Below, piece after piece: positions 4,309 through 38,938 of a stretch of 64,000 nt of DNA. Below the pieces are notes generated by a model. The model was given only the letters and a program-made list of their open reading frames with translations. It did no database searches and was not told the DNA's origin. This DNA is from a virus. The stretch lies in the IMG/VR virus record IMGVR_UViG_3300006880_000001, positions 65,360 to 129,359 of that record; one strand, given 5' to 3'. The position numbers were made by a program, and so were the translations under genes. Numbering within the stretch: the first letter of the stretch is position 1; each line of letters opens with the position of its first letter.

Positions 4309-4640
4309 GTCGTCGCCGGTGGTTCGGTGGGCGGCGTCGACGACTCCTCGAACGTCGCCCGCAACCGCTCTTCGGTCAGGATCACCCGGGTTCCGTTCGG
4401 CAGCGTGACCTCTACGCAATGCGTGCCGTGGACCGCCTTGCGTACGTCGATGGCGCCGGTGAAGTTGTTGGCCGGGAGCTCCTCGGCGCCGCCGTGGGTG
4501 AGGGCAGCGTGGGTGACCACCTGTCCGAGCGCGATGAGCTCCTCGACGAACCGTCGCACGAGGAGGTCCACGTCCCCGGCGTGCGGGGGTTGGTTGTGGT
4601 GCGTTCCCACGCCGCTGATGCTGATGTGCCAATTGCCCAT
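4305..4640 (-). CDS. Hypothetical protein
   Basis: 111 aa; AAAGGGA RBS-like sequence upstream; follows 4653-6857 on the same strand. Confidence 0.55.
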   Translation of the reverse strand: MGNWHISISGVGTHHNQPPHAGDVDLLVRRFVEELIALGQVVTHAALTHGGAEELPANNFTGAIDVRKAVHGTHCVEVTLPNGTRVILTEERLRATFEESSTPPTEPPATT

Positions 4641-4652
4641 CGGACGTCCCTT

Positions 4653-6857
4653 TCAGCCCGCCGCGTCCTCGTCGCTGCCCTCGTCCTCGTCATCTCCCTC
4701 GTCCTCGTCTCCCTCTTCGTCTTCGGAGAGTTGGGGGGCTTCGACCTGCGACTCGGCGACCTTGGTCATGGCCTTCCACGCCTCGGCGAGGTTCTGGACC
4801 ACGCCCGCGTGGTACTCGACCGGCACGTCGGGCAGGACGACGTCGATCAGATCGGCGAACCGAGCCGTCATGAACAGCTCGTGGAACGCGGGGACGTTGA
4901 TCTGGTTCCCGAGGATGTGGTTCGCGGCCTCGATGAGGTAGGCCGCGCACTCCTCCGGCGCCGCGCCCGGCGGCCGTCCGTTGACGAGCTTCGGCGGATC
5001 CTGCATCACCGCGTCGACGAACTCGCCGACAGCGCGACGCAGCTTCTGGATGTGGTCCATCGCCGGACCGAACCACTCCGCGTCGGTCTTGCCGTGCCGA
5101 CGCAGTTGGATGACCTTGGCACCCTCGGGCTTCGCCGACTCGACCTTCGGGGCCTCCGCGGCGGCCCCCTCGACCGCGGCGGACGCTTCCTTCGGGCGCT
5201 TGGCCTTCTTGGCCTTCACGGCGGAGGGTTGGGTCTCCACGCTCGGCGGCGTCGGCGCACTGCGCGGACCCTGGGGGAGCTGCTGCGCCGCCCCGAGACC
5301 ACCACCACGCTGAGCCGCGACGGCCGCGGCCTGCGCCTGAGCGATCTCGCCGCGGGCGCGGTTGGCGCTCACAGCCTCGTCGCGGCGTGCGGCGACCATC
5401 TTGCCGACGATCTCCTTCCCGTCGGAGATGGCGTCACGGATGAGACCGGTCACGGAGTCACCGTTGCCTCCCATCGTCTGCATCATGTTCTCCATCGCCA
5501 CCTTCTGGAGCTGGAGCATGTCGCCGGTGAGGTTGATGACGGTCTTGCGCAGGTCGGAGACGCCATCGCCGCTCTCCTTGAAGATGCCGATCACGTCCCG
5601 CGGCGTCATGATCTGGTTGGCCATGCGATCGGCGACGGCGCGCTGGTCTCGCAGGGCCTCCTTCACGAAGTCGAGCACCGGGTCGTGCTGTGGCTTCGCC
5701 GCGGCAGCGGCCGCGGCAGCCGCAGCGGCGGCGGCCTGCTGCGCCTTGAGCTCGTCGATCGAACGCCGGCTGTCCTCCTGTTGCTGACGGATGAGGTCCT
5801 TCAGCGCCTGCTCGCGATCGCGCGCCTCCAGCCGCTCGCGCTCGCGCAGACGCTCCGCCTCGAGCCGCTCGCGCTCGCGGCGGTTCTCCTCCTCTTGGCG
5901 GCGCATCTGCTCGTTCTGCGCCTTGATCTGCTCCTGGAGGGAGAGCAGCTGCGGGTCCGGCCCCTGCGGCTGCCCTGCCTTCTCCACGACCTTGACGATC
6001 AGGTCCTCGAGCCGCGCGAAGCGCTGGTCGATCGCCGCCTGCTGCCGCTCGCGGTCCATCCGCTCGCGCTCCGCGCGCATCTGCTCGGCCTCCGGGCTCG
6101 GACCGGTGGGGCGCCGGATCTCGGCCTGGATCGCGTCCAGCTGCTGACGACTCGCAGCCTGGATGGCCTCGAGCTGGGTCCGGTTCTGGGCGGCGATCCG
6201 CTCGATCTCCGCCTTGTGCTCGGCCTCGATCCGCTGGCGCTCGACGTCGCGCAGCTGCGTCTCCAGCTGGCGGTTGTGGGCCTCGAGCTCGCGGGTCTTG
6301 GAGTCGTCGCGGAAGGGGTTGTCGAACATGATCGTCTCCTGCCACGGGCGGCGGTAGCCCCCGTTCGGTGTCGCGTACGGAGCGGGGGCCTGGTACACGG
6401 TCCCGATCGGCGCCTGGGCGAAGCTGCCCGGCTGCGAGATCGGTGGCGTCGCCCAGATGGCCGCCGGCGGCGGGAATTGTCCGGTGGGGGTGGTCCCCCC
6501 TGGGGTTGGTGGACTGACGATGGTCTCCAGGGGCGGCCAGGCCTTCTCGACGTAGACTCGCGGGTCGTAGAAGCACTCCCAGGTGTGTGCGTCTCCGTCC
6601 CTATCGGTGACCGTGATGTTGTACAGACCCCCACCGACGGCGTCGCGAAGCCACGTCTCGAGCTGGAGGACGCTCGAGATATCCCACCCCTCCCCAGAAG
6701 CCAGCTCAGGACCGAGTGACGGGAGCGGTGTGATGGGGCTTCGGAGCGCGTTCGGCCCATTCCCCTTGATCCGCTCTACGCGGACAAACAGGGGCTCCTT
6801 CATGCCTCGGACCTTGTTGAGGTCGAAGACCACGGAGGGACGCTTGGGCGGTGCCAT
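4653..6857 (-). CDS. Large coiled-coil protein with acidic C-terminus
   Basis: Long Q/E/R-rich heptad region; start MAPPKR lies 6 nt after TACCGT and downstream of a GATC-N8-GATC box. Confidence 0.7.
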   Translation of the reverse strand: MAPPKRPSVVFDLNKVRGMKEPLFVRVERIKGNGPNALRSPITPLPSLGPELASGEGWDISSVLQLETWLRDAVGGGLYNITVTDRDGDAHTWECFYDPRVYVEKAWPPLETIVSPPTPGGTTPTGQFPPPAAIWATPPISQPGSFAQAPIGTVYQAPAPYATPNGGYRRPWQETIMFDNPFRDDSKTRELEAHNRQLETQLRDVERQRIEAEHKAEIERIAAQNRTQLEAIQAASRQQLDAIQAEIRRPTGPSPEAEQMRAERERMDRERQQAAIDQRFARLEDLIVKVVEKAGQPQGPDPQLLSLQEQIKAQNEQMRRQEEENRRERERLEAERLRERERLEARDREQALKDLIRQQQEDSRRSIDELKAQQAAAAAAAAAAAAAKPQHDPVLDFVKEALRDQRAVADRMANQIMTPRDVIGIFKESGDGVSDLRKTVINLTGDMLQLQKVAMENMMQTMGGNGDSVTGLIRDAISDGKEIVGKMVAARRDEAVSANRARGEIAQAQAAAVAAQRGGGLGAAQQLPQGPRSAPTPPSVETQPSAVKAKKAKRPKEASAAVEGAAAEAPKVESAKPEGAKVIQLRRHGKTDAEWFGPAMDHIQKLRRAVGEFVDAVMQDPPKLVNGRPPGAAPEECAAYLIEAANHILGNQINVPAFHELFMTARFADLIDVVLPDVPVEYHAGVVQNLAEAWKAMTKVAESQVEAPQLSEDEEGDEDEGDDEDEGSDEDAAG

Positions 6858-6874
6858 GCCCAAACGGTACCCCG

Positions 6875-6890
6875 GATCGAAGGTGCGATC
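6875..6890. promoter_or_regulatory. GATC-N8-GATC box
   Basis: GATCGAAGGTGCGATC is the reverse complement of 739-754; lies in a divergent intergenic region. Confidence 0.6.
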
Positions 6891-6958
6891 ATCGAAATGG
6901 CGCGTCTTTCACCCCAGGATTTGCGGGCCCGCAACCGGACTCGAGGTAACGTCTGACC

Positions 6959-7498
6959 ATGCGCAAGCGTCGCCCGCTCGCCCCCAGTGACCCTCGTGCG
7001 CCCTCAGGGATGGCGCATAGGACGTTCGAACGCACCCAGGGTTGCTGGAACTGCGTGAACTTCCGGCAGGGTGAGCCAGCGGTCGCGTTCTGGTCGCGCA
7101 AGCGCGCCGGCGACCTGCAGACCGCCCATGGCTTGGCCCTTCTGAAGGAGAAGGGAGAGAAAGACCCCGTCATCGTGGGCATGCGCCAGATGATCAACAC
7201 GATCGATCAGGGCGTGGCGGCCGGCCTCCTGGGCCTCTGCGGCGTCGGCGCAAGCGAAACGGACCTGGTTCAGAACACTTACCTGTGCGATCGCTGGACG
7301 GCCCAAGCCGGCGCCAGCGTGGCGCGCGCTGGGGAAGGCCTCGACGAGCTCCCGGAAGAGGTCCGGCACGAGGTCGATAGCGCCGTACCCGCCCACGGTC
7401 CCACGCAGGAGAGCACGCCACCGCAGTCCACGGAGGACCTGCCGCAGGTGGACATCTGCTCGATCGCACCTACGACCAAGGACACGGAGGAGAACTGA
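6959..7498 (+). CDS. Cys-motif hypothetical protein (possible metal binding)
   Basis: CWNC...LC...LCDRW pattern. Confidence 0.55.
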   Translation: MRKRRPLAPSDPRAPSGMAHRTFERTQGCWNCVNFRQGEPAVAFWSRKRAGDLQTAHGLALLKEKGEKDPVIVGMRQMINTIDQGVAAGLLGLCGVGASETDLVQNTYLCDRWTAQAGASVARAGEGLDELPEEVRHEVDSAVPAHGPTQESTPPQSTEDLPQVDICSIAPTTKDTEEN

Positions 7499-7500
7499 CC

Positions 7501-7827
7501 GTGCAGCTCCTGATCCTCGCGACCCTGACCACCGCCCTGTTCTACCTGGGGTCCCGCGCCCAGATCACGTCGTTCCTGTGGCGGCGATATCCCACCTGGT
7601 TGGCCCGCTTCGTCGACTGTCCAGCCTGCATCGGTTTCTGGCACGGTTTGTGGGTCGCCGCGACGCTGCGCGCCCTCGACCACCCACTCCCACCGTATCC
7701 CACCGAGGTCTGGAACCTACCCCTCCTCGCCCTGGCCAGCGTCGTGTGGACGCCCCTCGGCGCCGCGCTGCTCCAGCGGGCCCTGGAAGCGGTTGGTAGC
7801 GCCGTCAATGACCCGGAGGCCGGGTGA
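7501..7827 (+). CDS. DUF1360-like membrane protein with CxxC
   Basis: Hydrophobic; FVDCPACIGFW motif. Confidence 0.55.
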   Translation: MQLLILATLTTALFYLGSRAQITSFLWRRYPTWLARFVDCPACIGFWHGLWVAATLRALDHPLPPYPTEVWNLPLLALASVVWTPLGAALLQRALEAVGSAVNDPEAG

Positions 7828-7828
7828 C

Positions 7829-8344
7829 GTGGCACGGTCCCCGTCCAATCCGAACGCGCCCTACTACGTCCAGCTGCGGGACTTCAAGCGGCGCCTGATC
7901 GAAGGGGCGCTCGAGGTCAGCGATGGCAAGGCAGTCCTCGCCGCGCAACGGCTCGGGCTCCCCAAGGCGACCTGGAAGAAGCTCTGCCGCGAGCTCGACA
8001 TCAAGGGCACCTACGCCCCCTACGCCGAACGCACCGCGGCCGGGATGCGGACCAAGGCCGCGAAGGCAGCCCTCGAACAGGCAGCCACCGTGGATGCCCC
8101 TGCCGCCACGGACGCGGACACCCCCGATCCAGGCATCGCCGAAGCTGTCGAGGGCTTCGAGGAAGATGGCCTGTTCCTCATGGCGGACGAGCCGGATGAG
8201 GAGGAAGAGGACACCGAGGAGCTCGACGAGGACGAGGATGAGGATGAAGACGACGAAGACGAGCTCGACGAGGACGACGGCGACGAGGACGAAGACGAGG
8301 ACGACGCCGACGACGATGCCGAAGCAGACACCGACCCCAACTGA
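7829..8344 (+). CDS. Fis-type helix-turn-helix protein with long acidic tail
   Basis: FKRRLIEGALEVSDGKAVLAAQRLGLPKATWKKLCRELDI matches the Fis/HTH_8 pattern; C-terminal D/E tract of about 50 residues. Confidence 0.7.
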   Translation: MARSPSNPNAPYYVQLRDFKRRLIEGALEVSDGKAVLAAQRLGLPKATWKKLCRELDIKGTYAPYAERTAAGMRTKAAKAALEQAATVDAPAATDADTPDPGIAEAVEGFEEDGLFLMADEPDEEEEDTEELDEDEDEDEDDEDELDEDDGDEDEDEDDADDDAEADTDPN

Positions 8345-8353
8345 GGAGCCGCC

Positions 8354-9160
8354 ATGTTCACGTTCCTGCGGAGCCTACTGACCGATCTGACCTCCCACGG
8401 CGATCACGAGGGGCCGACGTCCGACGACACCGACGAACCCGACATCACGATCGACGAGGAGCCGCTCACTATCGACGGCGAGGGCTGGTTCGTCGGCCTC
8501 GGCGTCAAGCGCTTCTCGACGGCCCGGACCCAACCACTCCAGACGCCGTCGGGGCACGTCGAGGGGGTCACCTGGCACTGGACAGCGACCGGCGAAGGCA
8601 CCGGCGAGCGGCTGTGCAAGAACATCAAGAAGCTGCCCGAGCCAGGGCAGCATGTTGGCTCCTGGCACGTCCTGATCCCACGCCAGGGCGGCATCCTGCA
8701 ATGCGCGCCGACGACCGTCGGAACCTGGCATGCTGGTGGACCGACTGCCGCGCGGTTCTTCGCCAAGAACCACGGCTGGGCCAAGGCCCCACCGGGCATG
8801 AGCCGCATCAGCGCCAACGCGCTCTTCCTCGGCGTCGAGCTCGAATGCGTGGGCGAGGTGCGATCGATCGCCGGGTCGTGGATGGGGTGGCCCTTCGGCA
8901 AGAACGGCCAGAAGGGCCCGATCGTCCCTGACCGTGACATCGCCACGGCGGGTGGAAGGACGTACCAGGCGTTCACCAACGCACAGGTCACCGAAGCCAC
9001 GCGCATCGTGCGCGCGCTGGCCACCACCTACCGCCTCCCTGCGATGCAGTTCTCCTGGACCCATGCGGACATCGACCCGAACCGCAAGATCGATCCAGGG
9101 CCGATCTGGACCATGAAGATCCTCCCCGCGATCCTCGCATCCACCGTCCCCAACACCTGA
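8354..9160 (+). CDS. N-acetylmuramoyl-L-alanine amidase (Amidase_2-like endolysin)
   Basis: TWHWTA, SWH, TWHAG, N..GVELE, TH..IDP.RK.DPG motifs. Confidence 0.8.
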   Translation: MFTFLRSLLTDLTSHGDHEGPTSDDTDEPDITIDEEPLTIDGEGWFVGLGVKRFSTARTQPLQTPSGHVEGVTWHWTATGEGTGERLCKNIKKLPEPGQHVGSWHVLIPRQGGILQCAPTTVGTWHAGGPTAARFFAKNHGWAKAPPGMSRISANALFLGVELECVGEVRSIAGSWMGWPFGKNGQKGPIVPDRDIATAGGRTYQAFTNAQVTEATRIVRALATTYRLPAMQFSWTHADIDPNRKIDPGPIWTMKILPAILASTVPNT

Positions 9161-9652: not shown

Positions 9653-10921
9653 GTGAACCTGGACGACCTGGACGACGTGGACGACGACCTCGGTGACGAT
9701 CCTGCGATCGACGTCACCCTGACCCCTGATCAGCGCCAAGCACTGGACCAGATCATGTCGTGGCTGGGGCGCGACGGGCAGCAGACGCTGGCGCTGACCG
9801 GCCCCGCCGGGTCGGGCAAGTCGACGCTCCTGAAGGCGCTACAGCACCAGCTCCAACGCCGAGGCCGTGATGCCACCTGGTGCGCGACGACGGGCAAGGC
9901 GGCCGTGCGACTGGCGCGCGTCACCGGCCAGGCTGCGACACTCCACAGCACCCTCTATGGCCCTCCCAAAGAGGTCAAGGGCAAGCTGCGGTTCGACGAC
10001 CTCAAGCCAGAACCGGACACGGACGTCGTCGTCATCGACGAGGCTTCGATGCTGACGCCGACCCTCTTCCACGACGTCCAGACGTGGTCGCAGCACCTCC
10101 TCTTCGTCGGGGACGGCATGCAGTTGCCGCCAGTACTCGACCCCGACGACGAATCGAAGCACGGCAAGACCTACAGCGTGTTCGATCACGTGACGGGCCC
10201 CGAGCTGACCACGATCGTCCGTTCGAACGACGAGGTCATCGACATCGCCACCGAGCTCCGCACGAAGCACAAGATCCCTCGCAAGGCGGTCACGACCGTC
10301 CGGGACCCGATGACCGCGGCGGTCGAGGCCTACCTCGCCGACCCCGACGACCACATGCTCATCACCTGGCGCAACGAAGCCCGGATGGCGGCCAACCGCC
10401 TCGTCCGTCAACGTCGCGGCATCGAGGATCCGATGCTCCAGGCGGACGAGCCTTTCCTGGTCCGCAAGAACAGCCGCACGGCCATGAACGGTGACATCTT
10501 CACCGCGGAGCGCGTCCGCTCCGGGCCTCAACTGGGCCCCATCGCCACGCTCGAGGTGACCACAACCTGCGGGCGCCACCTGCTGGTCTACGCCGCCGGC
10601 TCCAAAGAGCCCATGGACGGCGCAATGCCGTTCCTCGGAGAGGAGGGCTTCCGCGACTACCTCTCCGGCAAGAAGCACGCGAAGGTCTACAACGACCCGG
10701 TCCCCGTCACGTACGGCTACTGCGGCACCTGCCATGTCTACCAGGGCAGTGAAGCCCGCCGCGTGTCGATCTTCCTGACCGGGCGCGACGCCGGCAACCG
10801 CGCGTTCGTCGAGAAGGTCCCCCTCCCGCGTCGTGCCGGCATGGTCGAGTTCTCGATCCGCTGGCTCTACACCGCCGTCACGCGCGCCAAGGAAAAGGCC
10901 ACCCTCTTCTACGACGCCTGA
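9653..10921 (+). CDS. Dda/RecD-like SF1B DNA helicase
   Basis: LTPDQ, GPAGSGKST, IDEASM, VGDGMQLPPV, YCGTCHVYQGSE, WLYTAVTRAK. Confidence 0.9.
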   Translation: MNLDDLDDVDDDLGDDPAIDVTLTPDQRQALDQIMSWLGRDGQQTLALTGPAGSGKSTLLKALQHQLQRRGRDATWCATTGKAAVRLARVTGQAATLHSTLYGPPKEVKGKLRFDDLKPEPDTDVVVIDEASMLTPTLFHDVQTWSQHLLFVGDGMQLPPVLDPDDESKHGKTYSVFDHVTGPELTTIVRSNDEVIDIATELRTKHKIPRKAVTTVRDPMTAAVEAYLADPDDHMLITWRNEARMAANRLVRQRRGIEDPMLQADEPFLVRKNSRTAMNGDIFTAERVRSGPQLGPIATLEVTTTCGRHLLVYAAGSKEPMDGAMPFLGEEGFRDYLSGKKHAKVYNDPVPVTYGYCGTCHVYQGSEARRVSIFLTGRDAGNRAFVEKVPLPRRAGMVEFSIRWLYTAVTRAKEKATLFYDA

Positions 10922-16814: not shown

Positions 16815-18695
16815 ATGACCACTGCCCGCGAGAACCTCGGTCCCGCCGAGACCATCATTCAGGCACTACTCGCGTACACGGACCACCTGGTGCACAACCG
16901 CCCCGGCATCGTCACGCCGGATCGGACGGTGACCATTGGCCTTCGCTGGGAACCCGTGACCCACAAGGTGGAGCAGGACCAGAAGGTCGTCTACCGGCTG
17001 ACCAAGGTCGGCAAGAAGACGCAGCGGGTCCGCGTTGGGGCCCTGCGGCCCGACAAGAAGGTGGTCGAGGCCGGGCGGGAGGTTGCCGAGTACCGTGACA
17101 GCGGCCTCTTCCCCGAGGTGGCGACCTGGTTCTACCAGCAGGTCGCCAATGTCTGGCGCCTCGACAACGAGTTCGCCGCGCGGTGGGCGTCGTACGCCTA
17201 CGGCCAGGAGCACCGTGACCTGAAGTGCGTCCTCGCGGCTTTCATGCTCGTCCAGACCCGCAAGGGCGACCCGATCGTCGAAGGTGGAGAGGTCCTCTTC
17301 CACGACGAAGACTTCCGCGACGTCGGCGAGGCCATGATGCTCCTCCACAAGAAGGGGGACGACAAGGGCCTGAACCCGAAGCTGCTACTCCGGATCTACG
17401 ACATCCTGACGCTGCCGGCGGTCGCGGCCATCAACCACGACCTCGGCTTCGGGCAGTCGACGCGTCATCCATTCCTCGGCCGCTGGCCGCGGGTGGTGGA
17501 GAAGTGGCTCCGCCACCGCGAGGAGAACCCGAAGTTGCTCGAGGGTCTCATCAAGGCCGGGTTCCGCACGGCGGTCATGGAGCTCGCGCGGCGCGTCGGC
17601 TACAAGCCGACCTCCACCCGCTTCTTCGAAGTCCTGCGCTGGAAGCAGGTCCAGGCCGACGACGGTCGGCGGGAGCTCGCCATCGGGCAGGCTACCGCGG
17701 CCGCGGAGAGCTGGGCAGGCCTCTCCGAGGAGCAGATCTGCCAGGCGATCGTCGCCGCCCGCTACGACTGGAAGCGGATCGTCAGCCTCCTGCCGAAGAC
17801 CGTCGGCGTCACGCGTGCGGTGATCGCCGCGGCGATGGAGTCCGGCGGCCTCTCGAACAAGGATCTCGTCATCCTGACGCCCACGCTCGAAGAGCTCGGC
17901 CTGCTCGACGTCGGATCGATCAAGGATCGCTGGTCCGCTGCGCTCAAGGCGGCTGACGACATGCGCGCCAGCAACGTCGCCCGCAACGTTCGCAACAAGG
18001 AGACCAAGGAGAAGCTCGAGGAGGCCGCCGACGGCGCGCTGCAGAAGCAGGTCGAGGCGGTGACCCGCCAGCTGCGGGTCTACTTCATGGTCGACATCTC
18101 GGGATCCATGGAGAGCAGCATCGCCACGGCCAAGGAGTACCTCGCCAAGTTCATCCAGGGATTCCCGTCGGACCAGGTCCACGTCGCGGTCTTCAACACC
18201 CAGGGCAAGGAGGTCGCCATCAAGCACCGTTCGGCCGCGGGGGTCGAGAATGCCTTCCGTGGCTACGTCGCCGGCGGTGGCACCGACTACGGCGCCGGCG
18301 TCCGCGCGCTACGTGACCGCAAGCCCAAGGCGGACGAGGACGTCCTCTTCATCTTCGTCGGCGACGAGGAGGCTGAGCCCTTCGCCTCGTCCGTGACGCT
18401 GTCGGGTCTCAACCCCATGGCCTTCGGCCTGCTCAAGGTTCGCCCGACGGGGGCCGGGTTCCGGGGGGTCCAGGATCACAACGCCGCCGTGCGCGAGACG
18501 GCGCGGCAGCTCAAGATTCCGTGTTTCCCGATCGAGGAGGCGATCTTCGCCGACCCCTACGCGATTCCGCGCACCATCCGCGCGCTGATCGCGGCGACGC
18601 CGATCACGCAGACGACGACGACGGTCACGCCGCGCAAGACCCTGATCGACCAGATCCTCAAGACCGAGCTCCTGACGAAGCCGACCTGGGCCTGA
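16815..18695 (+). CDS. vWA-domain protein with TROVE/Ro60-like helical N-terminal region
   Basis: vWA MIDAS is clear (VDISGSM, FNT, GGGTDYG, FVGDEE). TROVE-like resemblance (FAARWASYAY, VEKW, MELARRVGYKP) is weaker. Confidence 0.7.
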   Translation: MTTARENLGPAETIIQALLAYTDHLVHNRPGIVTPDRTVTIGLRWEPVTHKVEQDQKVVYRLTKVGKKTQRVRVGALRPDKKVVEAGREVAEYRDSGLFPEVATWFYQQVANVWRLDNEFAARWASYAYGQEHRDLKCVLAAFMLVQTRKGDPIVEGGEVLFHDEDFRDVGEAMMLLHKKGDDKGLNPKLLLRIYDILTLPAVAAINHDLGFGQSTRHPFLGRWPRVVEKWLRHREENPKLLEGLIKAGFRTAVMELARRVGYKPTSTRFFEVLRWKQVQADDGRRELAIGQATAAAESWAGLSEEQICQAIVAARYDWKRIVSLLPKTVGVTRAVIAAAMESGGLSNKDLVILTPTLEELGLLDVGSIKDRWSAALKAADDMRASNVARNVRNKETKEKLEEAADGALQKQVEAVTRQLRVYFMVDISGSMESSIATAKEYLAKFIQGFPSDQVHVAVFNTQGKEVAIKHRSAAGVENAFRGYVAGGGTDYGAGVRALRDRKPKADEDVLFIFVGDEEAEPFASSVTLSGLNPMAFGLLKVRPTGAGFRGVQDHNAAVRETARQLKIPCFPIEEAIFADPYAIPRTIRALIAATPITQTTTTVTPRKTLIDQILKTELLTKPTWA

Positions 18696-18704
18696 GGGGG
18701 CATC

Positions 18705-19076
18705 ATGGCGAACCCCGTCGAGATCCCCGTCCTCGAGATGCTCGAGGCCTACCGCAAGCTGGAAGATGCCCTCGCAGCCGTCTTCGGCTTCGATCCCTGT
18801 GCGTACGCCGGATTCGGCGACTGCACAGACATGTGGTGGGTGTCGGATGGCCGGAAGGTGTGGTCGAGCGATCAACAGCTCACCGAGGAGGTGATCACGG
18901 CTGGGCGCCACCTCTATTCCCACGTGATCAAGGAGACGCGACGCTGCGGTTCCTACGTCGCGTTCCAATTCGAGACGGACACCGACTCGGAGATCGTAGA
19001 TCTCGTTCACGTGTTCACCACCGATCTCCAGATCCATGACGAGGGACTCCTCGAGATCGCCCAGGAGACCTGGTGA
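18705..19076 (+). CDS. Acidic hypothetical protein in the Ubl operon
   Basis: GAGGGG RBS; GTGA overlap with the next gene. Confidence 0.6.
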   Translation: MANPVEIPVLEMLEAYRKLEDALAAVFGFDPCAYAGFGDCTDMWWVSDGRKVWSSDQQLTEEVITAGRHLYSHVIKETRRCGSYVAFQFETDTDSEIVDLVHVFTTDLQIHDEGLLEIAQETW

Positions 19077-20023
19077 GCTGGCGAGATCTCCTCGGATCGT
19101 CTGACCAGACGATCACGTTGCCGTGGGTGGGTGGAGCGACCCTGCACGGACCGCGGTCTTGGTGGACCATCACCTACGAGGCGATGCGGTTCCTACGAGG
19201 CCACGATCACGGCTGGTACACCTTCCGCATCGATCGCCGCTGCGTCACCGATCCGCAGCCGGCGGAGCCCGATCCGACGGCCCTCCACTTCGACGCCCAC
19301 GGGTACCTCGTCGGGGACCGCCTCGCGCGCTGGGACATCCGGCCTCGCGCAACTGAGCCTGCCGCCATCATCAGCTACACGGAGCCCGTCTTCCTCATCG
19401 ACCCGGGCCTCGACCGGTTCGTACGCGTCAGCGCGGGCCGCGTCTACGAGCGCGGTCCCCTCATCTACCGCCAGCAAGAGATGCCGGTCGGGCCGGAGCA
19501 GGAGGTCCTCACGGCCTTCCTCGATCGGGCAGAGAACGTCGACGCGGTCAGCGGTGTGTCGCCGGCGCTCGAGGCGGCCTTCCGAATGGAGACCCACCAG
19601 CGCGCGGAGGCGGAGCGACGTCGAGAGGAGCTCCGCCAAGAAGCGGCCCGCCTCGAGACGGAGCGTCAGGAGGCGGAACGTCGCCAGCAGATCGTCCAGC
19701 AGCTCGGCGACGGAGCGGGCCGACGCGCGGTCGCCCGGACCGACTTCGGCGACGCCGCGCGAGCGGCCCTCGCCATCGTGGACGCCGAGCTCATCGACCA
19801 CCGTCGAGGACAGCGCGGAGAGTACGTCGTCCGCTACCGGATCGAGAACCGACGCTTCGAATGCGTCTGTGACGAACAGCTCCGGATCATCGACAGTGGT
19901 ATCTGCCTCGCTGACCACGCGACCGGCGAGAAGGGCGATACACGCTTCACGCTCGAGTCCCTCCCGACGGTCATTCGCCAAGCCATCCGCGAGAACCGCC
20001 TCGTCGTCTACCGACACGTCTGA
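19073..20023 (+). CDS. Putative E2-like (UBC-fold) conjugating protein
   Basis: C-terminal IIDSGICL...FTLESLPTVIRQAI resembles the E2 G.ICL...TL..(V/L) active-site region (Cys278); lies among JAB, Ubl and E1 genes. Confidence 0.5.
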   Translation: MSWRDLLGSSDQTITLPWVGGATLHGPRSWWTITYEAMRFLRGHDHGWYTFRIDRRCVTDPQPAEPDPTALHFDAHGYLVGDRLARWDIRPRATEPAAIISYTEPVFLIDPGLDRFVRVSAGRVYERGPLIYRQQEMPVGPEQEVLTAFLDRAENVDAVSGVSPALEAAFRMETHQRAEAERRREELRQEAARLETERQEAERRQQIVQQLGDGAGRRAVARTDFGDAARAALAIVDAELIDHRRGQRGEYVVRYRIENRRFECVCDEQLRIIDSGICLADHATGEKGDTRFTLESLPTVIRQAIRENRLVVYRHV

Positions 20024-20037
20024 AGAGGAGCAGGGAC

Positions 20038-20391
20038 ATGGACATGAAGCTACCCCTCGTATCGCCAACGAACTCCGATCAGGATGTGGTGTTCGTATCC
20101 AACCTCGTCATCGGCCCCGGTGTGGTCCTGGAGGTGCAACGGACGGCTCCTGCCAAGGCAGGCAGAGTTGTCCAGGTGTGCATCCACGGTTGCATCGTCG
20201 ACGGACGTCCGTCGCAGCACAGCGATGCCCCGCTCATCACACTCGTCGATGCTGACGATCGGATGGTCCTCGTCATCAAGGACGCGATCATCACACGCCA
20301 AGGACCTGATCTGGCGTCCCCGATCCCCGCCGAAGTGCCGGTGGTCGAGTGGACCTCGCTGCCGCCCGAACCGCCCGAGCCCAAGGAGTGA
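20038..20391 (+). CDS. Hypothetical beta-rich protein
   Basis: GAGGAG RBS; 117 aa. Confidence 0.55.
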   Translation: MDMKLPLVSPTNSDQDVVFVSNLVIGPGVVLEVQRTAPAKAGRVVQVCIHGCIVDGRPSQHSDAPLITLVDADDRMVLVIKDAIITRQGPDLASPIPAEVPVVEWTSLPPEPPEPKE

Positions 20392-20396
20392 CCGTG

Positions 20397-20831
20397 ATGG
20401 AAACCGGCGTCCTCATCGCCAGGGGCATGGCCCCCCTCTACTGGCACTTGCCGGAAGGGCGAACCTCCGGTAGCTTGCCCGACTCGCGCGTGCTGTGGGA
20501 CACCATCTGGCTCCACCGCCACGACCTGGAGGGCTTCGCGCATACCCACCCCGGCGGCGGCCAGCCGTGGCCGTCGACCGAAGACATCACCACCTTCTTC
20601 GCCATCGAGCTCGCGCTCGGGCGCAAGCTGACCTGGTGGATCAGCAACCAGGAGCGGACCGTCGTCGTCGTCACCACCGACGACTACGAATTCGACCACG
20701 GCGACACGCGGGTCACGAAGTCCGGCGAGGTCATCGAAGGTCAGAAGTCCCGCCGTCAATCGTATCGCGTCTTCCCGATCCCCGACGAACCGTCCTGGGT
20801 CGCCGAACTTCGCCATCAATCCAACCTCTGA
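20397..20831 (+). CDS. JAB/MPN+ (JAMM) metallopeptidase
   Basis: N-terminal E (MET G), then FAHTHP...WPSTED, matching the JAMM E..HxH..S..D motif. Confidence 0.85.
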   Translation: METGVLIARGMAPLYWHLPEGRTSGSLPDSRVLWDTIWLHRHDLEGFAHTHPGGGQPWPSTEDITTFFAIELALGRKLTWWISNQERTVVVVTTDDYEFDHGDTRVTKSGEVIEGQKSRRQSYRVFPIPDEPSWVAELRHQSNL

Positions 20832-20840
20832 AGGAGCACC

Positions 20841-21137
20841 ATGAACGAACTGATCCATGTCGAGGGCCGCCGCGAGCTGGTGCGCGACGACGAAGCCCGC
20901 GTCAACATCACCTACAAGGGCGAGAACGGGGACCTACCGGACACCATCACCTTCGATGCCACCGACGCTGACGTCAAGACGTGGGTCACGGAGGCAGTCC
21001 GGGGCGGGCACGTTCCGGGCATCGCCGCCGACCCCGGCGCGAACTTCCGCGACTTCGTCGTCGATCGCTTCACGCCCACCGACGCGCGGCCGTTCAACCT
21101 CATCTCGATCCGCCCGAAGACGCCGTTCGGCCGATGA
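20841..21137 (+). CDS. Putative ubiquitin-like (beta-grasp) protein ending PKTPFG-R
   Basis: 98 aa; beta-beta-alpha-beta pattern by eye; penultimate Gly; lies between JAB and E1; AAGGAG RBS. Confidence 0.6.
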   Translation: MNELIHVEGRRELVRDDEARVNITYKGENGDLPDTITFDATDADVKTWVTEAVRGGHVPGIAADPGANFRDFVVDRFTPTDARPFNLISIRPKTPFGR

Positions 21138-21490
21138 TGAACGTCGTCAAGCGATGCCCGGGGTGTGGCGCTACGTGGGTTACGCCCCCGGGATCGATCA
21201 TCAAATGCCGGAACTGTGGGACGACCTGCGCCGGCACGACGTCCGTCGCGTTTACCACTGACGCCCCCACGGTACAGACGGCGGACGGTGATGAGACCGC
21301 AACAGCGCTCCAACTGGCCGACGCCAAGGTCACGGAGGCCAGGGATGCGCTGCAGGCTCTCGTCAAGGCGAACCCTGCCCTCGTCCATCCTCAGTGCCGC
21401 ACGTGGCAATGTCGTCGGTGTCGGCTACGCAACACGATCGAGATGCTCGAGTGCTGGGAGCCACTTTCACAGGAGGCGAAGAAGTCATGA
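21134..21490 (+). CDS. Zn-finger protein
   Basis: CPGC...CRNC and C..WQCRRC...C; ATGA overlaps at both ends. Confidence 0.55.
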   Translation: MMNVVKRCPGCGATWVTPPGSIIKCRNCGTTCAGTTSVAFTTDAPTVQTADGDETATALQLADAKVTEARDALQALVKANPALVHPQCRTWQCRRCRLRNTIEMLECWEPLSQEAKKS

Positions 21491-22080
21491 CCACCGTAGC
21501 GGGTGAGCAGCGGATCGTCATTGCGGGCATCGGAGCGTTGGGGTCGCATCTCGTGCCCCTGCTGAGGAATCTCCCCGCCGACCTTGTCGTGGTCGACTTC
21601 GACCGCGTCGAGAAGAAGAACGTGGCCTCGCAGTTCTACGGCACCTCCACCGTGGGCCAAACGAAGGTGGAGGCCCTGAAGCGCCTCATGCTGTTCCTCT
21701 ACGCCGCGCCCGTGCAGGCGAAGGGGTATCGGATCTCCGAGGCGAACGTCGATGTGCTTCTGGCCGGCGCGACGCTGGTCGTGGATTGCCTCGACAACGG
21801 TGATGCGCGTCGACTCGTCCAAGGCTTCGTGCGCCGGCACAAGGTACCGTGCGTGCACGGCGCCCTCGCCGCCGATGGCAGCTTCGCCCGCGTGATGTGG
21901 GACGAGGCGTTTGTCATCGACAACGAGGACGTCGTCGGTCAGCCGACCTGCGACGGCGGCGAGCACCTGCCGTTCATCGCCGCCACGGCGGCGTGGCTCG
22001 CGCAGGCGGTGCAGACGTTCTGCCGGAGCGGAAAACAGTTCAACTACTATGTTTCTCCGGCGAACGTCATCTTGCTCTGA
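21487..22080 (+). CDS. ThiF/MoeB-family E1-like activating enzyme
   Basis: GIGALGS, VDFDRVEKKN..Q, GQTKVEAL, VDCLDN, QPTC (Cys155); no CxxC Zn pairs. Confidence 0.9.
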   Translation: MTTVAGEQRIVIAGIGALGSHLVPLLRNLPADLVVVDFDRVEKKNVASQFYGTSTVGQTKVEALKRLMLFLYAAPVQAKGYRISEANVDVLLAGATLVVDCLDNGDARRLVQGFVRRHKVPCVHGALAADGSFARVMWDEAFVIDNEDVVGQPTCDGGEHLPFIAATAAWLAQAVQTFCRSGKQFNYYVSPANVILL

Positions 22081-22150: not shown

Positions 22151-22281
22151 GGAAGGGTAAGGGGACCGGGTCCCCGCCAACTGCTAAATTGGTCCACCCC
22201 GACAACGCCTCTCGCTGGCCTCGGCTAGCACACGGCAGCTGTCTACAAGAACGGTCGGTTCGACTCCGACACCCTTCCCCA
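22151..22281 (+). ncRNA. tRNA-like RNA 1: 8-bp acceptor, 6-bp D stem, 8-nt anticodon loop CTGCTAAA, about 60-nt extra arm, encoded CCA
   Basis: GGAAGGGT/ACCCTTCC-CCA; GGGGAC-CGG-GTCCCC; GCCAA/TTGGT; GTCGG-TTCGACT-CCGAC. Confidence 0.75.
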
Positions 22282-22410
22282 CTTCGCTGACAACTGAATA
22301 ATGACCATTTCCGGGGGGACGTCGCCTGGTGGCGACACTTTCATATGACGAAAGCAATCCCGACAACGCCTCTCGCTGGCCTTGGCTAGCACATGGCGCC
22401 TGTCTACAAG
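22198..22410 (+). repeat. 52-nt direct repeat (22198-22249 and 22359-22410) inside two tRNA-like RNAs
   Basis: 48/52 identical by manual alignment; folds GACA/TGTC, GCC/GGC, GCTGGC-CTYG-GCTAGC. Confidence 0.9.
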
Positions 22411-22444
22411 GAAGCCGTGACAGGTTCGATTCCTGTACCCCCGA
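22312..22444 (+). ncRNA. tRNA-like RNA 2: 6-bp D stem, anticodon loop ATATGAC, same extra-arm insert
   Basis: CGGGGGG/ACCCCCG; GTCGCC-TGGT-GGCGAC; CTTTC/GAAAG; ACAGG-TTCGATT-CCTGT. Confidence 0.75.
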
Positions 22445-22473: not shown

Positions 22474-22548
22474 CGCGAAGATGCTCATTGGTCGAGCATC
22501 GGCCTTAAGAGCCGACAGGAGTCGGTTCAAATCCGACCTACGCACCCA
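22474..22548 (+). tRNA. Atypical tRNA with UAA anticodon, short variable loop and C1:A72 mismatch
   Basis: CGCGAAG AT GCTC-ATTGGTC-GAGC A TCGGC-CTTAAGA-GCCGA CAGGA GTCGG-TTCAAAT-CCGAC CTACGCA C CCA (75 nt). Confidence 0.7.
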
Positions 22549-32996: not shown

Positions 32997-32998
32997 GT

Positions 32999-33019
32999 GT
33001 CACCCCGCTCTGGTACGGT
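32999..33019 (+). promoter_or_regulatory. GTCACC-N6-TGnTA motif
   Basis: GTCACC CCGCTC TGG TACGGT; GTG 33027 7 nt later. Confidence 0.7.
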
Positions 33020-33026
33020 CTCGCCC

Positions 33027-35339
33027 GTGAAGACCTACCGTATCGACAAGAACCTCTTCCTCGTCCTCCAGCCCGTGCCGAAGACGCGCGCGGCCATCCC
33101 GGTCCCGCAGCCGACCAACCACATCGTGGTCGTCGACTGCAGCGGGAGCATGACGGGCGACCTGCCCAAGCTGCGGACGCACCTGAAGTCGAAGCTGGTG
33201 ACGCTCCTGCGCACCGACGACACGCTGACCGTCATCTGGTTCTCGGGCAAGGGCGAGTTCGGGGTCTTGGTCGAGGGCCAAAAGGCTGCCACCGCCAAGG
33301 ACCTGAAGGGGTTCCACGACGCCATCGATCGGTGGTTGCGTCCGATCGGCCTCACCGGCTTCAAGGAGCCGCTCGAGGAGGTCGCCAAGGTCATCAAGCG
33401 CGTCAAGAACGGCAACCCGTTCTCGCTCTTCTTCATGAGCGACGGCTGCGACAACCAATGGCCGCGCGCCGACATCCTGAAGACGGTCGAGCAGGCGACG
33501 GGAGGACTCGCCGCCGCGGCCTTCGTCGAGTACGGCTTCTACGCCGACCGAGCTCTCCTCGCCGCCATGGCCGAGCGGGCCGGCGGCCGGCACCTCTTCG
33601 CCCGTGACTTCGCCGAGTACGAGCCGGTCCTGAACAACACCATCGAGACGCGTGCCCTGAACGCCGTGCGCGTGCCGGTGACGATCCGGCAGTCGGTCAT
33701 CGACGGCGTGGCCTTTACCTTCGGAACCGATCATCGGGAGCTCTTCACCTTCACCGTCGAGGGCACTGCCGACGCCGGTGCGGATCAGGTCGTGGTCCCC
33801 GAGAACCTCGACGTGATCGCCTACCTGTCGGAGGAGCATCGCGGTGACGTCGACGACCTCCCGATGATCGCCGCGAACGTGAACGCGCGGAAGAAGGGGT
33901 CGCCGATGACCGAGGCCTACGCTGCCCTCGCCCTCTTCGCTATCCGCATGCGGCCCAACGTCGTCTACCCGATCCTGAAGGCGCTCGCCGACGCCGCGCT
34001 GATCGAGCAGTTCTCCGGGTGCTTCGGCAAGCAGCGCTACTCGGACTTCGTCGACAAGGCGCTCCACTTCGCCACCTCGCCGACCAGTCGGTACCCGCAG
34101 GGCTGGGACCCGACCAAGGTCCCCGACGACAACGCCTTCACGGTCCTCGAGCTCCTCCAGTACCTGTCCTGGGACCACAACAACCGGCTCCTCCTCGACT
34201 CACCCGAGTTCAAGTACAGCCGCATCAGCCGCGGTCGGGTCGACGCCACCGAGGTCATGACCGACGTCGAGCAGACCCGCATCGCCGAGATCACGGCCGA
34301 GATGGCCAAGACCAAGGCGGCCAAGAAGGTCAAGGAGCTGCAGGCCGAGCTCGATCGGCTGATGCAGGCCAAGGGTACCGCCTTCACGTTCACGCCCGAG
34401 CCGAACCCGGACGGCTACCCGATCGAGAACCTGACCTACAACGAGGACCGCCCGAACATCTCGGTCCTCGTGAAGAAGTCCGGCACCGTCGATCTCACGG
34501 GCCGCATCCCGGCGGGGCTGAAGCTGCCCGCGCAGCTCCCGACCCACATCTGGCGCAACTACGCCATCATCCGCGACGGCCTCGTCAACGTCGACATCCT
34601 GCCGGCGCAGGTGGTGCCGACCACGGCGAAGGACCTCCGCACCCGCGGCTGCGACATGACGCCGGTGAACGGGGTCGAGGCCATCCGCGTCCACCTCCTG
34701 CCGATCCTGAACCGGACGATGGTCAAGGAGGCCAGCGCCGAGGACCTGATCCGCATGCAGTGGAACCTGACCCGACTGCGGGCCGCCCAGAAGGTCCTCA
34801 ACCACTTCAAGAAGAAGGTGGCTGCCCTCGATCCGAAGCCGCCGGCGACGCTCGCCTCGACGTACGGCGAGGCCGAAGCGACCTGGCTCAAGGATGTCGT
34901 CGGAGTCACCGACGGCGGCTTCGCACCCAAGCACACCGTCCAGGCCGAGTCGAAGGACTTCTACCTGGGCAAGGAGCTCACGGTCAAGCTCAAGGGCTAC
35001 TCGAGCCTACCGACCGTCGACGAGGTCGCTGCCAAGCTGAAGGGGGGCAAGCTCAACGGACCCGGCGCGCTCATGGTGACCACCCTCGAAGAGTGCCTCA
35101 ACCGAGGCCTCTCAGGCCCGACGGGTGACGTCGCCTGGCTCGAGAAGCAAGCCCGGCTCGCGACGGTGTCGACCCGCCAGCTCATCCAACAGATCGCCGA
35201 GATCAAGTTCGCCATCATCGTCGGCCAGGTCTGGTTCAAGGAGTGGGCGTCCCTCGCCGAGAACACGATGCGCCTCGCATGCGACGGCGTCGACATCCTC
35301 GGCACCATCGAGATGAAGGACGTGGAGATCCGGGTATGA
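33027..35339 (+). CDS. Large phage vWA-domain protein
   Basis: NHIVVVDCSGSM, IWFSG, GLTGF, FFMSDG MIDAS elements at the N-terminus. Confidence 0.8.
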   Translation: MKTYRIDKNLFLVLQPVPKTRAAIPVPQPTNHIVVVDCSGSMTGDLPKLRTHLKSKLVTLLRTDDTLTVIWFSGKGEFGVLVEGQKAATAKDLKGFHDAIDRWLRPIGLTGFKEPLEEVAKVIKRVKNGNPFSLFFMSDGCDNQWPRADILKTVEQATGGLAAAAFVEYGFYADRALLAAMAERAGGRHLFARDFAEYEPVLNNTIETRALNAVRVPVTIRQSVIDGVAFTFGTDHRELFTFTVEGTADAGADQVVVPENLDVIAYLSEEHRGDVDDLPMIAANVNARKKGSPMTEAYAALALFAIRMRPNVVYPILKALADAALIEQFSGCFGKQRYSDFVDKALHFATSPTSRYPQGWDPTKVPDDNAFTVLELLQYLSWDHNNRLLLDSPEFKYSRISRGRVDATEVMTDVEQTRIAEITAEMAKTKAAKKVKELQAELDRLMQAKGTAFTFTPEPNPDGYPIENLTYNEDRPNISVLVKKSGTVDLTGRIPAGLKLPAQLPTHIWRNYAIIRDGLVNVDILPAQVVPTTAKDLRTRGCDMTPVNGVEAIRVHLLPILNRTMVKEASAEDLIRMQWNLTRLRAAQKVLNHFKKKVAALDPKPPATLASTYGEAEATWLKDVVGVTDGGFAPKHTVQAESKDFYLGKELTVKLKGYSSLPTVDEVAAKLKGGKLNGPGALMVTTLEECLNRGLSGPTGDVAWLEKQARLATVSTRQLIQQIAEIKFAIIVGQVWFKEWASLAENTMRLACDGVDILGTIEMKDVEIRV

Positions 35340-38110: not shown

Positions 38111-38938
38111 TCAGGGTTTGATGAAGCGCAGGCCCAGGTACCGGACCACGTAGTCGTAGATCGACGTCGCCTCGGGGATGGCCGGATTCTTGGTGTAGCC
38201 CATGGGCTCGAAGCGGGCGCCGGCGAAGCGTGCGACGAGATCCTCCACCGTGGTCCCGGTCTGAAGCCCGATGGACACCATCTTCGCCCATCCGTCGACG
38301 AGCGCGCCCAGGGTCGAGCCCTCCTTGGCGATCCGGAGGAAGATCTCACCTGGGGTCATGTCCTCGTAGAGCCCCACGATCAGATAGCCCTCGCAGTTGG
38401 CGATCGTGAACTTGTGGGTGATGCTGAAGCGCTCGGGTGGCATGTGGCGCCGTGCGCGCGGCGCGGGCGTCGGGGTCTGTGGTGCCACCTCCAGCGTCGG
38501 CTCCTGGGTCTCGGCCTCGGTCTCGTCGGCCAGGGGAACGATCTTGAGGAGGGCTGCGTCGGCAGGAGCCATGGGCGTGTCCTTTGGGTAGAGGTGCTGG
38601 AACAGGTTGCAGAGATCGTCCAAGAGTTGGACGTCGCGTTCGATGTGGTACTCGACCTTCTGCACGGCGATCACGACCGTCGTGTGGTGCCGGTTCCCGA
38701 AGGCGCGGCCGAGCTCGGGGTAGCTGAGCCGCGTGAAGCGCCGTGCGAGGTACATCGCGACGGCGCGGACGTACGTGATGTTGTGAGCCCGTGACGGACC
38801 GACGATGGGACCGACCGTCGTTCCGTAGAAGGCGGCGACCGTCTTCAGGATGGTCGGCACGGTGAGAACCGGACGTGGCGTGTGGTTCTCTTGCACCTTC
38901 CGGTTCCCAAAGCTGCGAAGACGGTGGAGAGACGTCAT
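38111..38938 (-). CDS. Fusion of DnaA domain IV HTH and NrdJ-type TSCPD domain
   Basis: R.VAMYLARRFTRLSYPELGRAFGNRHHTTV (DnaA C-terminal) and ERFSITHKFTI...GEIF...KEGST...SIGLQ.G...FEP.G...TSIYDY (class II RNR C-terminal domain). Confidence 0.8.
   Translation of the reverse strand: MTSLHRLRSFGNRKVQENHTPRPVLTVPTILKTVAAFYGTTVGPIVGPSRAHNITYVRAVAMYLARRFTRLSYPELGRAFGNRHHTTVVIAVQKVEYHIERDVQLLDDLCNLFQHLYPKDTPMAPADAALLKIVPLADETEAETQEPTLEVAPQTPTPAPRARRHMPPERFSITHKFTIANCEGYLIVGLYEDMTPGEIFLRIAKEGSTLGALVDGWAKMVSIGLQTGTTVEDLVARFAGARFEPMGYTKNPAIPEATSIYDYVVRYLGLRFIKP

Follow-up and report, generated by a model that had tools for sequence, protein, structure and literature searches.

A conserved five-gene module with a predicted ubiquitin-like modifier in large and huge phages and in sparse Myxococcota chromosomes

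The window considered here is a stretch of 64,000 nucleotides, which constitutes the second half (65360-129359) of the IMG/VR virus record IMGVR_UViG_3300006880_000001 and has a GC content of 63-70%. At positions 16815-22080 of the window, eight open reading frames (ORFs) in the same orientation overlap or follow each other with narrow spacing and encode, among others, a ubiquitin-like (Ubl) protein precursor, an E1-like activating enzyme, a JAB/JAMM metallopeptidase and a protein with a von Willebrand factor A (vWA) domain. The initial annotation, made from the sequence alone, had read this locus as a virus-encoded Ubl conjugation operon of eight tightly coupled, co-oriented genes, and all the features that it listed are found in place. 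The eight frames are as follows (positions are those of the window):

16815-18695, plus strand: core gene 1, vWA protein, 626 aa, Pfam VWA_2 with a metal ion-dependent adhesion site (MIDAS)
18705-19076, plus strand: phage-specific ORF, 123 aa, GC content at third codon positions (GC3) 0.83
19073-20023, plus strand: core gene 2, p316, 316 aa, candidate Ubl acceptor (E2-like)
20038-20391, plus strand: phage-specific ORF, 117 aa, GC3 0.76
20397-20831, plus strand: core gene 3, JAB/JAMM metallopeptidase, 144 aa, JAMM motif HTHP..PS..D
20841-21137, plus strand: core gene 4, Ubl precursor, 98 aa, ending PKTPFGR with one Arg after Gly97
21134-21490, plus strand: Zn-ribbon protein, 118 aa, occasional companion, two N-terminal CxxC pairs
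21487-22080, plus strand: core gene 5, E1-like adenylyltransferase of the ThiF/MoeB type, 197 aa from ATG 21487

The intergenic gaps amount, in order, to 9, -4, 14, 5, 9, -4 and -4 nt, figures that assume the starts ATG 20397 for the JAB gene, ATG 21134 for the Zn-ribbon gene and ATG 21487 for the E1 gene. Purine runs resembling Shine-Dalgarno sequences precede most starts; in the case of the JAB gene, ATG 20397 has AAGGAG 8 nt upstream, and a GTG at 20349 is also open. The p316 gene starts with a GTG that overlaps the stop of the preceding gene, and the likely starts of the Zn-ribbon and E1 genes overlap the stops of the Ubl and Zn-ribbon genes, respectively, as ATGA. GC3 ranges from 0.76 to 0.92 in seven of the eight frames, the Zn-ribbon frame standing outside that list. 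The window is viral, as it encodes phage replication and lysis genes and as the source record is a complete 129,359-bp phage with direct terminal repeats. Outside the locus, the phage functions encoded comprise a family A DNA polymerase with a uracil-DNA glycosylase-like domain, an SNF2 helicase, a PD-(D/E)XK nuclease, AAA_24, a Dam-type methylase, dCMP deaminase and thymidylate kinase, together with an amidase and an M23 peptidase.

A scan of viral contigs with the single p316 protein gave no matches, and an alignment-based p316 scan of IMG/VR recovered 55 viral loci, 28 of them on contigs of at least 200 kb, the longest being 618,736 bp. When the presence of the eight window proteins was scored by tBLASTn, p316, JAB and Ubl were found in all 55 loci, the vWA protein in 53 and E1 in 50, with the core genes invariably on one strand and in the order vWA-p316-JAB-Ubl-E1. 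Among prokaryotes, scanned with each species represented by a single genome, a further 34 loci were recovered, mostly in metagenome-assembled genomes (MAGs) of Myxococcota, in which the same gene order is found (p316 34, Ubl 30, E1 29, vWA 28, JAB 24). Clustering of all ORFs, done independently, returned the same five families as the sole widely shared genes. The conserved core thus consists of the five genes for the vWA protein, p316, JAB, Ubl and E1, and the repeated finding of these five of the eight genes in one order and on one strand, across the 55 viral loci as well as the 34 from MAGs, is beyond chance. The conserved synteny that the initial annotation had put forward as a check is therefore borne out, and the module, gene order included, is conserved within a clade of large and huge phages.

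The Ubl protein has 312 homologues and no Pfam, PADLOC, PHROG or NCBIfam match. A C-terminal RPKTPFG end or a near variant (RP...[FYLV]G) is present in all 79 unique sequences and is followed by 0-61 unconserved residues; the Gly is preceded by Phe, Tyr, Leu or Val in 79/79, and Gly-Gly never occurs. The evidence that counts most here is comparative, an invariant motif ending in Gly with variable residues beyond it being the mark of a modifier that is synthesized in precursor form. An AlphaFold model built on a 48-sequence alignment (predicted local distance difference test, pLDDT, 89.4) predicts the order beta-beta-alpha-beta-beta followed by a flexible tail, and nearly all entries of the fold-search lists are beta-grasp domains of the ubiquitin-like, PB1 and Ras-binding kinds, MoaD among them. 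Foldseek places Atg8, LC3 and GABARAP in its best rows, where the best E-value of 0.2 is not significant. Of the two features that had been proposed for the 98-aa protein, the terminal Gly is thus retained by its invariance, and the beta-grasp fold is a prediction with which the topology of the model and the Ubl-dominated lists agree. Atg8-family modifiers have an aromatic-Gly mature end, exposed when a protease removes extra residues; the likeness is one of fold and logic only, as no Atg7, Atg3 or Atg4 homologues are present here. CxxC stretches occur in some of the tails after the Gly, and nine longer Ubl proteins carry extra C-terminal sequence past it. Five of these nine (P0392, P0394-P0397) share a domain of approximately 120 aa after the Gly, which has no Pfam match and the look of a ubiquitin fusion.

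The peptidase encoded directly upstream carries the HTHP..PS..D motif that had led to its designation as a JAMM peptidase, and the JAMM residues E2, H49, H51, S60 and D63 (counted from ATG 20397) do not vary among 26 sequences, the spacing from the second His to the Ser being one residue longer than in the JAMM consensus. Database matches are faint: Pfam Prok-JAB is matched with E 0.002 and 18.4 bits, under the cut-off of 25, and PHROG tail family 5556 with E 1.1e-4. In a PDB profile search with the family, Rpn11/PSMD14 accounts for 13 of the 15 matches listed, the first 12 included, at E-values of only 0.08-0.84. The role of the peptidase can be read from its covariation with the end of the Ubl protein. 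Eight unique loci are without a JAB gene, the gap from p316 to Ubl being too short there to accommodate one, and in these the Ubl stops exactly at the Gly in 8/8 cases compared with 13/71 in the JAB-bearing loci (Fisher p = 7.8e-6, a value uncorrected for relatedness that overstates independence, as the JAB-less loci are kin and represent maybe two or three lineages). As the absence of JAB correlates with a Ubl that already ends at Gly, this comparison supports trimming of the Ubl precursor at the Gly by JAB as the best-supported step of the pathway, in agreement with the earlier proposal that the single Arg after Gly97 is what the peptidase would remove.

The E1-like protein is matched by Pfam ThiF (PF00899) with E 3.3e-21 and 76 bits (cut-off 28.1), and the best NCBIfam matches are likewise ThiF models. 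The family is minimal, of approximately 190-200 aa, without a rhodanese, UFD or zinc motif, and the CxxC zinc site of MoeB has no counterpart in it. The nucleotide-binding GxGxxG (G14, G16, G19), the D100-C-L-D-N stretch with its Mg-binding Asp and Cys155 are invariant in 36 sequences, and the first two align with their counterparts in MoeB. Cys155 is the Cys of the 'PTC' stretch, noticed already in the initial annotation, and aligns with the crossover Cys in the 'LTC' of MoeB, a position that thioester or acyl-persulfide chemistry requires, so that the designation as a ThiF/MoeB-type E1 is upheld. In PADLOC 2.0, E1 matches 27 Cap2-type 'E1-E2' models (best 7.2e-12), and the other seven proteins of the locus match none. 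Membership in a PRTRC system was considered and rejected, as only E1 matches a PRTRC model (PRTRC_ThiF, 5.9e-7, far under the cut-off) and no PRTRC A-F match is found.

The second core protein, p316, belongs to a family with at least 873 homologues at 90% clustering; among the 120 listed, none is named and none has a Pfam family. With the family profile, 408 matches at E <=0.001 were obtained among 1.84 billion representatives (50% clustering). Gly276, Cys278, Leu279 and Asp289 are invariant in 79/79 unique sequences, down to 26% identity, whereas His282 is kept in only 44/79 and Cys266 is variable. In an AlphaFold-type model based on a 44-sequence alignment (pLDDT 89.2), the N-terminal part is predicted to form two small OB-like beta-barrels (approximately residues 1-66 and 70-144), the middle a 49-residue helix (164-212) followed by two short helices, and the C-terminal part an alpha/beta domain in which a four-strand meander (239-274) leads at once into the Cys278 loop, with a helix at 297-306. 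As the Cys is invariant without a conserved His, a thioester or persulfide carrier fits p316 better than a papain-like protease. Searches with Pfam, PADLOC and NCBIfam gave no match to p316, the PDB profile search of the C-terminal domain listed no E2, an Atlas search with residues 211-316 returned no usable match, and the best VIA Z for this domain was 4.0-4.6 (wide and second look). Cholera toxin B, which fills the best PDB profile rows for p316 (E 0.014-1.5), is taken as chance. Prok-E2_A and Prok-E2_B, sought for a profile-profile comparison, were not found in 201 Myxococcota or 14 control genomes. One homologue, P0275 (432 aa), carries the region around its second barrel in duplicate.

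The vWA protein, whose gene ends approximately 10-100 nt before p316 in most loci, carries its vWA domain at residues 422-514 (Pfam VWA_2, E 1.1e-8, 36 bits versus a cut-off of 27), and its MIDAS is intact, with D427, S429, S431, T490 and D517 invariant in 32 sequences. For the N-terminal region of approximately 410 aa no family was matched. The initial annotation had called the protein TROVE/Ro60-like, an identity that is not supported: TROVE (PF05731) was matched at E <=1 by 0/32 family members, the PDB profile search of the family returned vWA domains only, and six-frame Pfam searches detected no TROVE in this phage, five other phage records or five MAGs. A comparison by hhalign with an alignment of 12 genuine Myxococcota TROVE proteins gave a probability of 3.1% and E 0.014 over 210 collinear columns that stop at the MIDAS motif. 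Only a language-model feature search (Atlas), with TROVE clusters at ranks 15 and 21 and scores of 0.92 and 0.91, favours the identity, as no more than a lead. A Ro60-like overall architecture of the vWA protein, its N-terminal fold included, is a possibility. Ro60/Rsr proteins (TROVE plus vWA) with their Y RNAs show, to the extent that they are covered by the accessible part of Chen et al. (2014, PMC4201824), where YrlA is described, a similar layout, in that a putatively helical N-terminal region of approximately 400 aa precedes a vWA/MIDAS domain and tRNA-like RNAs are encoded nearby; here, on the other hand, TROVE is undetectable, and the tRNA-like elements described below end in an acceptor-like stem and do not have the permuted layout of YrlA. 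ROT/TROVE proteins have been reported from some jumbo phages, and the accessible part of that source has 0 occurrences of JAB, E1-like or ThiF (Iyer et al., 2021, PMC7824862).

The module is located in the surroundings of tRNA genes. Within flanks of 6 kb in Rctr197k (locus L001) and of up to 8 kb in the other loci, at least one tRNA gene is present in 44/49 unique viral loci, at least five in 31 and tRNA genes on both sides in 29, counts that exceed the number of independent events because the phages are related. The association persists between lineages with no more than 40-60% protein identity, and 610/615 flank tRNAs are co-oriented with the module. In Rctr197k the module sits between two tRNA arrays. 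In the window the following elements lie downstream of the E1 gene:

22151-22278, plus strand: tRNA-like element, 128 nt, paralogous to the next, missed by ARAGORN
22313-22442, plus strand: tRNA-like element, 130 nt, paralogous to the preceding one, missed by ARAGORN
22474-22548, plus strand: tRNA-Leu(UAA), detected by ARAGORN and Rfam, 394 nt downstream of E1

The two tRNA-like elements possess acceptor, D, anticodon-like and T arms and a nearly identical insert of approximately 55 nt at the position of the variable arm; they score 30.9 and 27.8 bits against Rfam tRNA-Sec, below the gathering score of 47, and have fold z-scores of -3.5 and -2.8. Both contain a 22-nt core, of which the phage has only these two copies and the 56 loci searched have none. 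An interpretation as Y RNAs was rejected, as no Y-RNA family is matched at E <=10 and the layout is unlike that of YrlA as given in the accessible part of PMC4201824. ARAGORN also reports a tmRNA gene with a tag peptide on a phage contig of 452 kb, within its tRNA array (L016:15517-15877).

The initial annotation was correct in that the virus itself encodes the genes, but as a description this is too narrow, since the module also occurs in chromosomal surroundings in Myxococcota MAGs. Genes for tRNA lie near 13/34 of the MAG loci, and for this reason some of the 34 loci probably represent binned phage contigs; 21/34 are without a nearby tRNA. The flanks of four MAG loci are chromosomal and encode, among others, a sulfatase, histidine kinases, a Ser/Thr kinase, ABC transporters, an acyl-CoA dehydrogenase and a TonB receptor. 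More distant copies reside on contigs of 1.2 and 3.2 Mb, and the core order is kept in three of the four such chromosomal loci. As p316 is present in 9/401 sampled Myxococcota genomes, the bacterial distribution is sparse. The module is mobile, found in phages and in sparse Myxococcota chromosomes. In one Polyangiaceae MAG contig of 544 kb (L063), EF-Tu is encoded directly upstream of the module (4555-5937) and three tRNA-Ser genes directly downstream (9912-10488). Another chromosomal copy (L107, G301:C12:128500-144500) looks decayed, with a vWA frame of 211 aa and an E1 frame of 74 aa.

Beyond the core, the locus is variable. The 123-aa ORF (no Pfam, PHROG or NCBIfam match) and the 117-aa ORF (no family match) are each found in 0/55 viral and 0/34 MAG loci. 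The Zn-ribbon protein, with weak Pfam matches to L37ae/RPAB4 zinc ribbons (E 0.02), occurs in one of the 55 viral and two of the 34 MAG loci, and the suggestion that it is an E3-like core factor is not sustained by its presence in only 3/89 other loci. In the phage collection there is a single relative with a name, Virus Rctr197k (one of 50,697 records; 46% query coverage, 69.6% identity), which possesses the same five genes with seven other genes inserted. Its p316 homologue (7929-8867) is unannotated in GenBank, where a 'hypothetical protein' on the minus strand, Rctr197k_234, covers the region, and its vWA homologue (5935-7926) is annotated as a misc_feature only. The genes between the core genes in related phages are mostly HNH and LAGLIDADG homing endonucleases (for example L015:9366-9905, L054:10048-10653 and L045:6221-7171). 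RtcB, encoded upstream of the module in four loci, was dismissed as a member, as in three of five whole phage records it is located hundreds of kb away. Elsewhere in the window, 32997-35339 (plus strand) encodes a second vWA-like protein of 780 aa with a weak N-terminal VWA_2 match (E 9.2e-4, under the cut-off), and 38111-38938 (minus strand) a 275-aa protein in which a DnaA C-terminal helix-turn-helix (E 1.5e-21) and a TSCPD domain (E 3.6e-10) occur together.

The reading that accommodates these observations best, and to which about an even chance is given, is that the five genes constitute a pathway of Ubl activation and conjugation-type transfer. The Ubl precursor would be cut after Gly97 by the JAMM peptidase, whereby a single Arg, and in relatives up to a whole domain, would be removed; this step is supported by the comparative evidence from the Ubl ends. 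The exposed Gly carboxylate would then be adenylated by E1 with ATP and the Ubl probably taken onto Cys155, as would be expected from membership in the E1 family. Subsequently, the Ubl may be handed over to Cys278 of p316, the C-terminal domain of which would act as an E2-like carrier, with the OB-like barrels and the long helix possibly holding a partner or a substrate. Finally, the vWA protein, encoded upstream of p316, may participate through its MIDAS as a receptor, an adaptor or a target. A conjugation-type pathway fits better than a sulfur carrier because of the second protein with an invariant Cys, the MIDAS receptor and the patchy distribution over phages and chromosomes. The genomic company of the module suggests a target in the translation/tRNA apparatus, or a role in phage-host conflict.

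Several observations weigh against conjugation. The E1 is closest to the sulfur-carrier E1s MoeB, Uba4 and ThiF, and trimming of precursors by JAB is known for sulfur carriers as well, so that the best-supported step does not discriminate between the two chemistries; the kinship of the JAB-less loci, noted above, weakens the Fisher test on which that step draws. With respect to p316, 0/34 C-terminal domains were matched by the UBC/Prok-E2 Pfam families at E <=10, neither PDB nor BFVD yielded a Foldseek match at E <=0.001, no conserved His-Pro-Asn in the manner of an HPN-type motif precedes Cys278, and among the 150 matches listed from the large profile search all were p316-family proteins or fragments except one repetitive surface protein, judged spurious. 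The E2-like call of the initial annotation is not established: the candidate Cys is invariant and the predicted topology is compatible, but a significant match of fold or sequence was not obtained and the nearby His282 is inconstant. An E2-like role of p316 is a plausible and reasonable functional guess, and the protein is at most a candidate member of the E2 family.

The main rival, which is considered unlikely, is that the trimmed Ubl is converted to a thiocarboxylate and carries sulfur for tRNA thiolation or a thio-cofactor, with Cys278 of p316 as a persulfide relay and the OB-like barrels binding tRNA. CysO/Mec+, QbsE/QbsD, TtuB/TtuC and Urm1/Uba4 are sulfur-carrier systems with JAMM-trimmed precursors, and the module resembles such systems in its minimal E1 of the MoeB/ThiF kind, in a small protein with a predicted beta-grasp fold, in a JAMM peptidase that would expose the Gly and in a link to tRNA. 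Accordingly, this reading is favoured by the PDB profile of the E1 family, in which MoeB (3.9e-15) and Uba4 (2.5e-12) come before TcdA, ThiF, Uba5, SAE2 and Cap2 (1.1e-6), by the tRNA genes around 44 of the 49 unique viral loci, almost all of them co-oriented, and by the MAG locus with EF-Tu upstream and three tRNA-Ser downstream. Known sulfur carriers end, however, in Gly-Gly, whereas the Ubl ends in Phe-Gly or similar in every one of the 79 sequences; the large cargo domains fused past the Gly resemble ubiquitin fusions more; neither the vWA/MIDAS partner nor p316 has a role or counterpart in known sulfur relays; and the majority of the MAG loci (21/34) have no tRNA nearby. Furthermore, rhodanese (PF00581), PP-loop ATPase (PF01171) and cysteine desulfurase (PF00266) are each found in 0/5 phage records, among them the whole genome of this phage, with 5/5 records at least 90% complete for the PF00266 search and 4/5 for the other two, a result that agrees with the earlier remark on the lack of a rhodanese or TtuA-type gene; host enzymes could substitute for them.

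Very unlikely is a different reading of the E1, by which it would act on a non-Ubl substrate, either a tRNA base in the manner of TcdA, which is among its profile matches, or a peptide C-terminus in the manner of MccB, with the Ubl, vWA protein and p316 forming a non-covalent scaffold or regulatory complex in which the Ubl would be seated on the MIDAS. Of a different nature is the notion, also rather improbable, that the module is an anti-phage or superinfection-exclusion island of the Bil/CBASS type, phage cargo with which the proteins of competing phages would be tagged. This concerns the biological role and is compatible with the chemistry of conjugation-type transfer. Carriage by phages and chromosomes alike, the patchy distribution in 9 of the 401 Myxococcota genomes, the PADLOC matches of E1 to Cap2 models and the antiviral function of known bacterial Ubl operons, as described in the accessible part of PMC10557695, speak for it. 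On the other hand, PADLOC recognizes E1 alone, the module occupies in phages a fixed place in the tRNA array as a conserved, syntenic clade feature and not as variable cargo, and the flanks of the four chromosomal loci are housekeeping or metabolic and not defence genes. Bil (ISG15-like) and related E1/E2/JAB/Ubl operons likewise have separate genes for Ubl, E1, JAB and a Cys carrier and a patchy mobile distribution. The term vWA has 0 occurrences in PMC10557695, PMC11601596 and PMC11601603, which deal with such operons. The present module differs from the Bil type in the OB-like barrels and coiled coil ahead of the Cys domain of p316, in the obligatory vWA/MIDAS protein, in the phage tRNA arrays and in that its Ubl, p316 and JAB have no PADLOC match and no Pfam match above cut-off. 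With type II CBASS it has in common the Rossmann core of the E1 (PADLOC and PDB matches to Cap2 given above) and a JAB partner as in Cap2/Cap3, but there is no E1-E2 fusion, CD-NTase or effector, and the substrate would be a dedicated small Ubl.

Two further systems deserve comparison. The tail assembly protein I of phages lambda and T1 with the JAB domain of gpK represents, according to the accessible part of Iyer et al. (2006, PMC1779556), in which the lambda TAPI/JAB pair and bacterial E1/E2/JAB operons are described, a phage Ubl with a conserved C-terminal Gly and sequence beyond it next to an adjoining JAB; in contrast to the present module, that pair is without an E1 and is located among tail genes, whereas here E1 and tRNA genes are the neighbours. 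The vWA-MoxR 'FtsH ternary' conflict systems, which possess a full Ubl-conjugation set and are enriched in developmentally complex bacteria, likewise couple vWA genomically to JAB, E1 and Ubl, as outlined in the accessible part of Kaur et al. (2020, PMC7159879). The present module has none of the MoxR AAA+, FtsH, RING E3, Ubl-E2 fusion and caspase-like effector components of those systems.

A bolder elaboration of conjugation-type transfer, to which only a slim chance is assigned, is that p316 represents a new class of Ubl carrier (OB-OB, coiled coil, Cys domain), which together with a MIDAS receptor would attach an Atg8-like modifier to a component of translation; the target might even be something other than a protein, for instance a tRNA or a different RNA to which the OB barrels bind. 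In this manner, huge phages would protect or reprogramme their own tRNA pool in the course of infection, and myxobacteria would have captured the module.

A description of the vWA, p316, JAB, Ubl and E1 module or of a phage-encoded E1 was not found in full-text searches of openly accessible articles. The location of the module inside phage tRNA gene arrays is a new fact, as are the chromosomal myxobacterial copies, and the two together reshape the question of what the module does. Bacterial Ubl conjugation has so far been described as host defence against phages, and here the genes are conserved in a phage clade. The p316 family is large and unannotated, and two of the partner proteins of the module are without an assigned family. 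Under either chemistry, a defined set of five genes is at hand that can be rebuilt in vitro. If sulfur is carried, the module would constitute a phage-encoded tRNA-thiolation route without all of the known transferases, and if the pathway conjugates, it would represent a virus-side Ubl system with a new architecture of the carrier enzyme.

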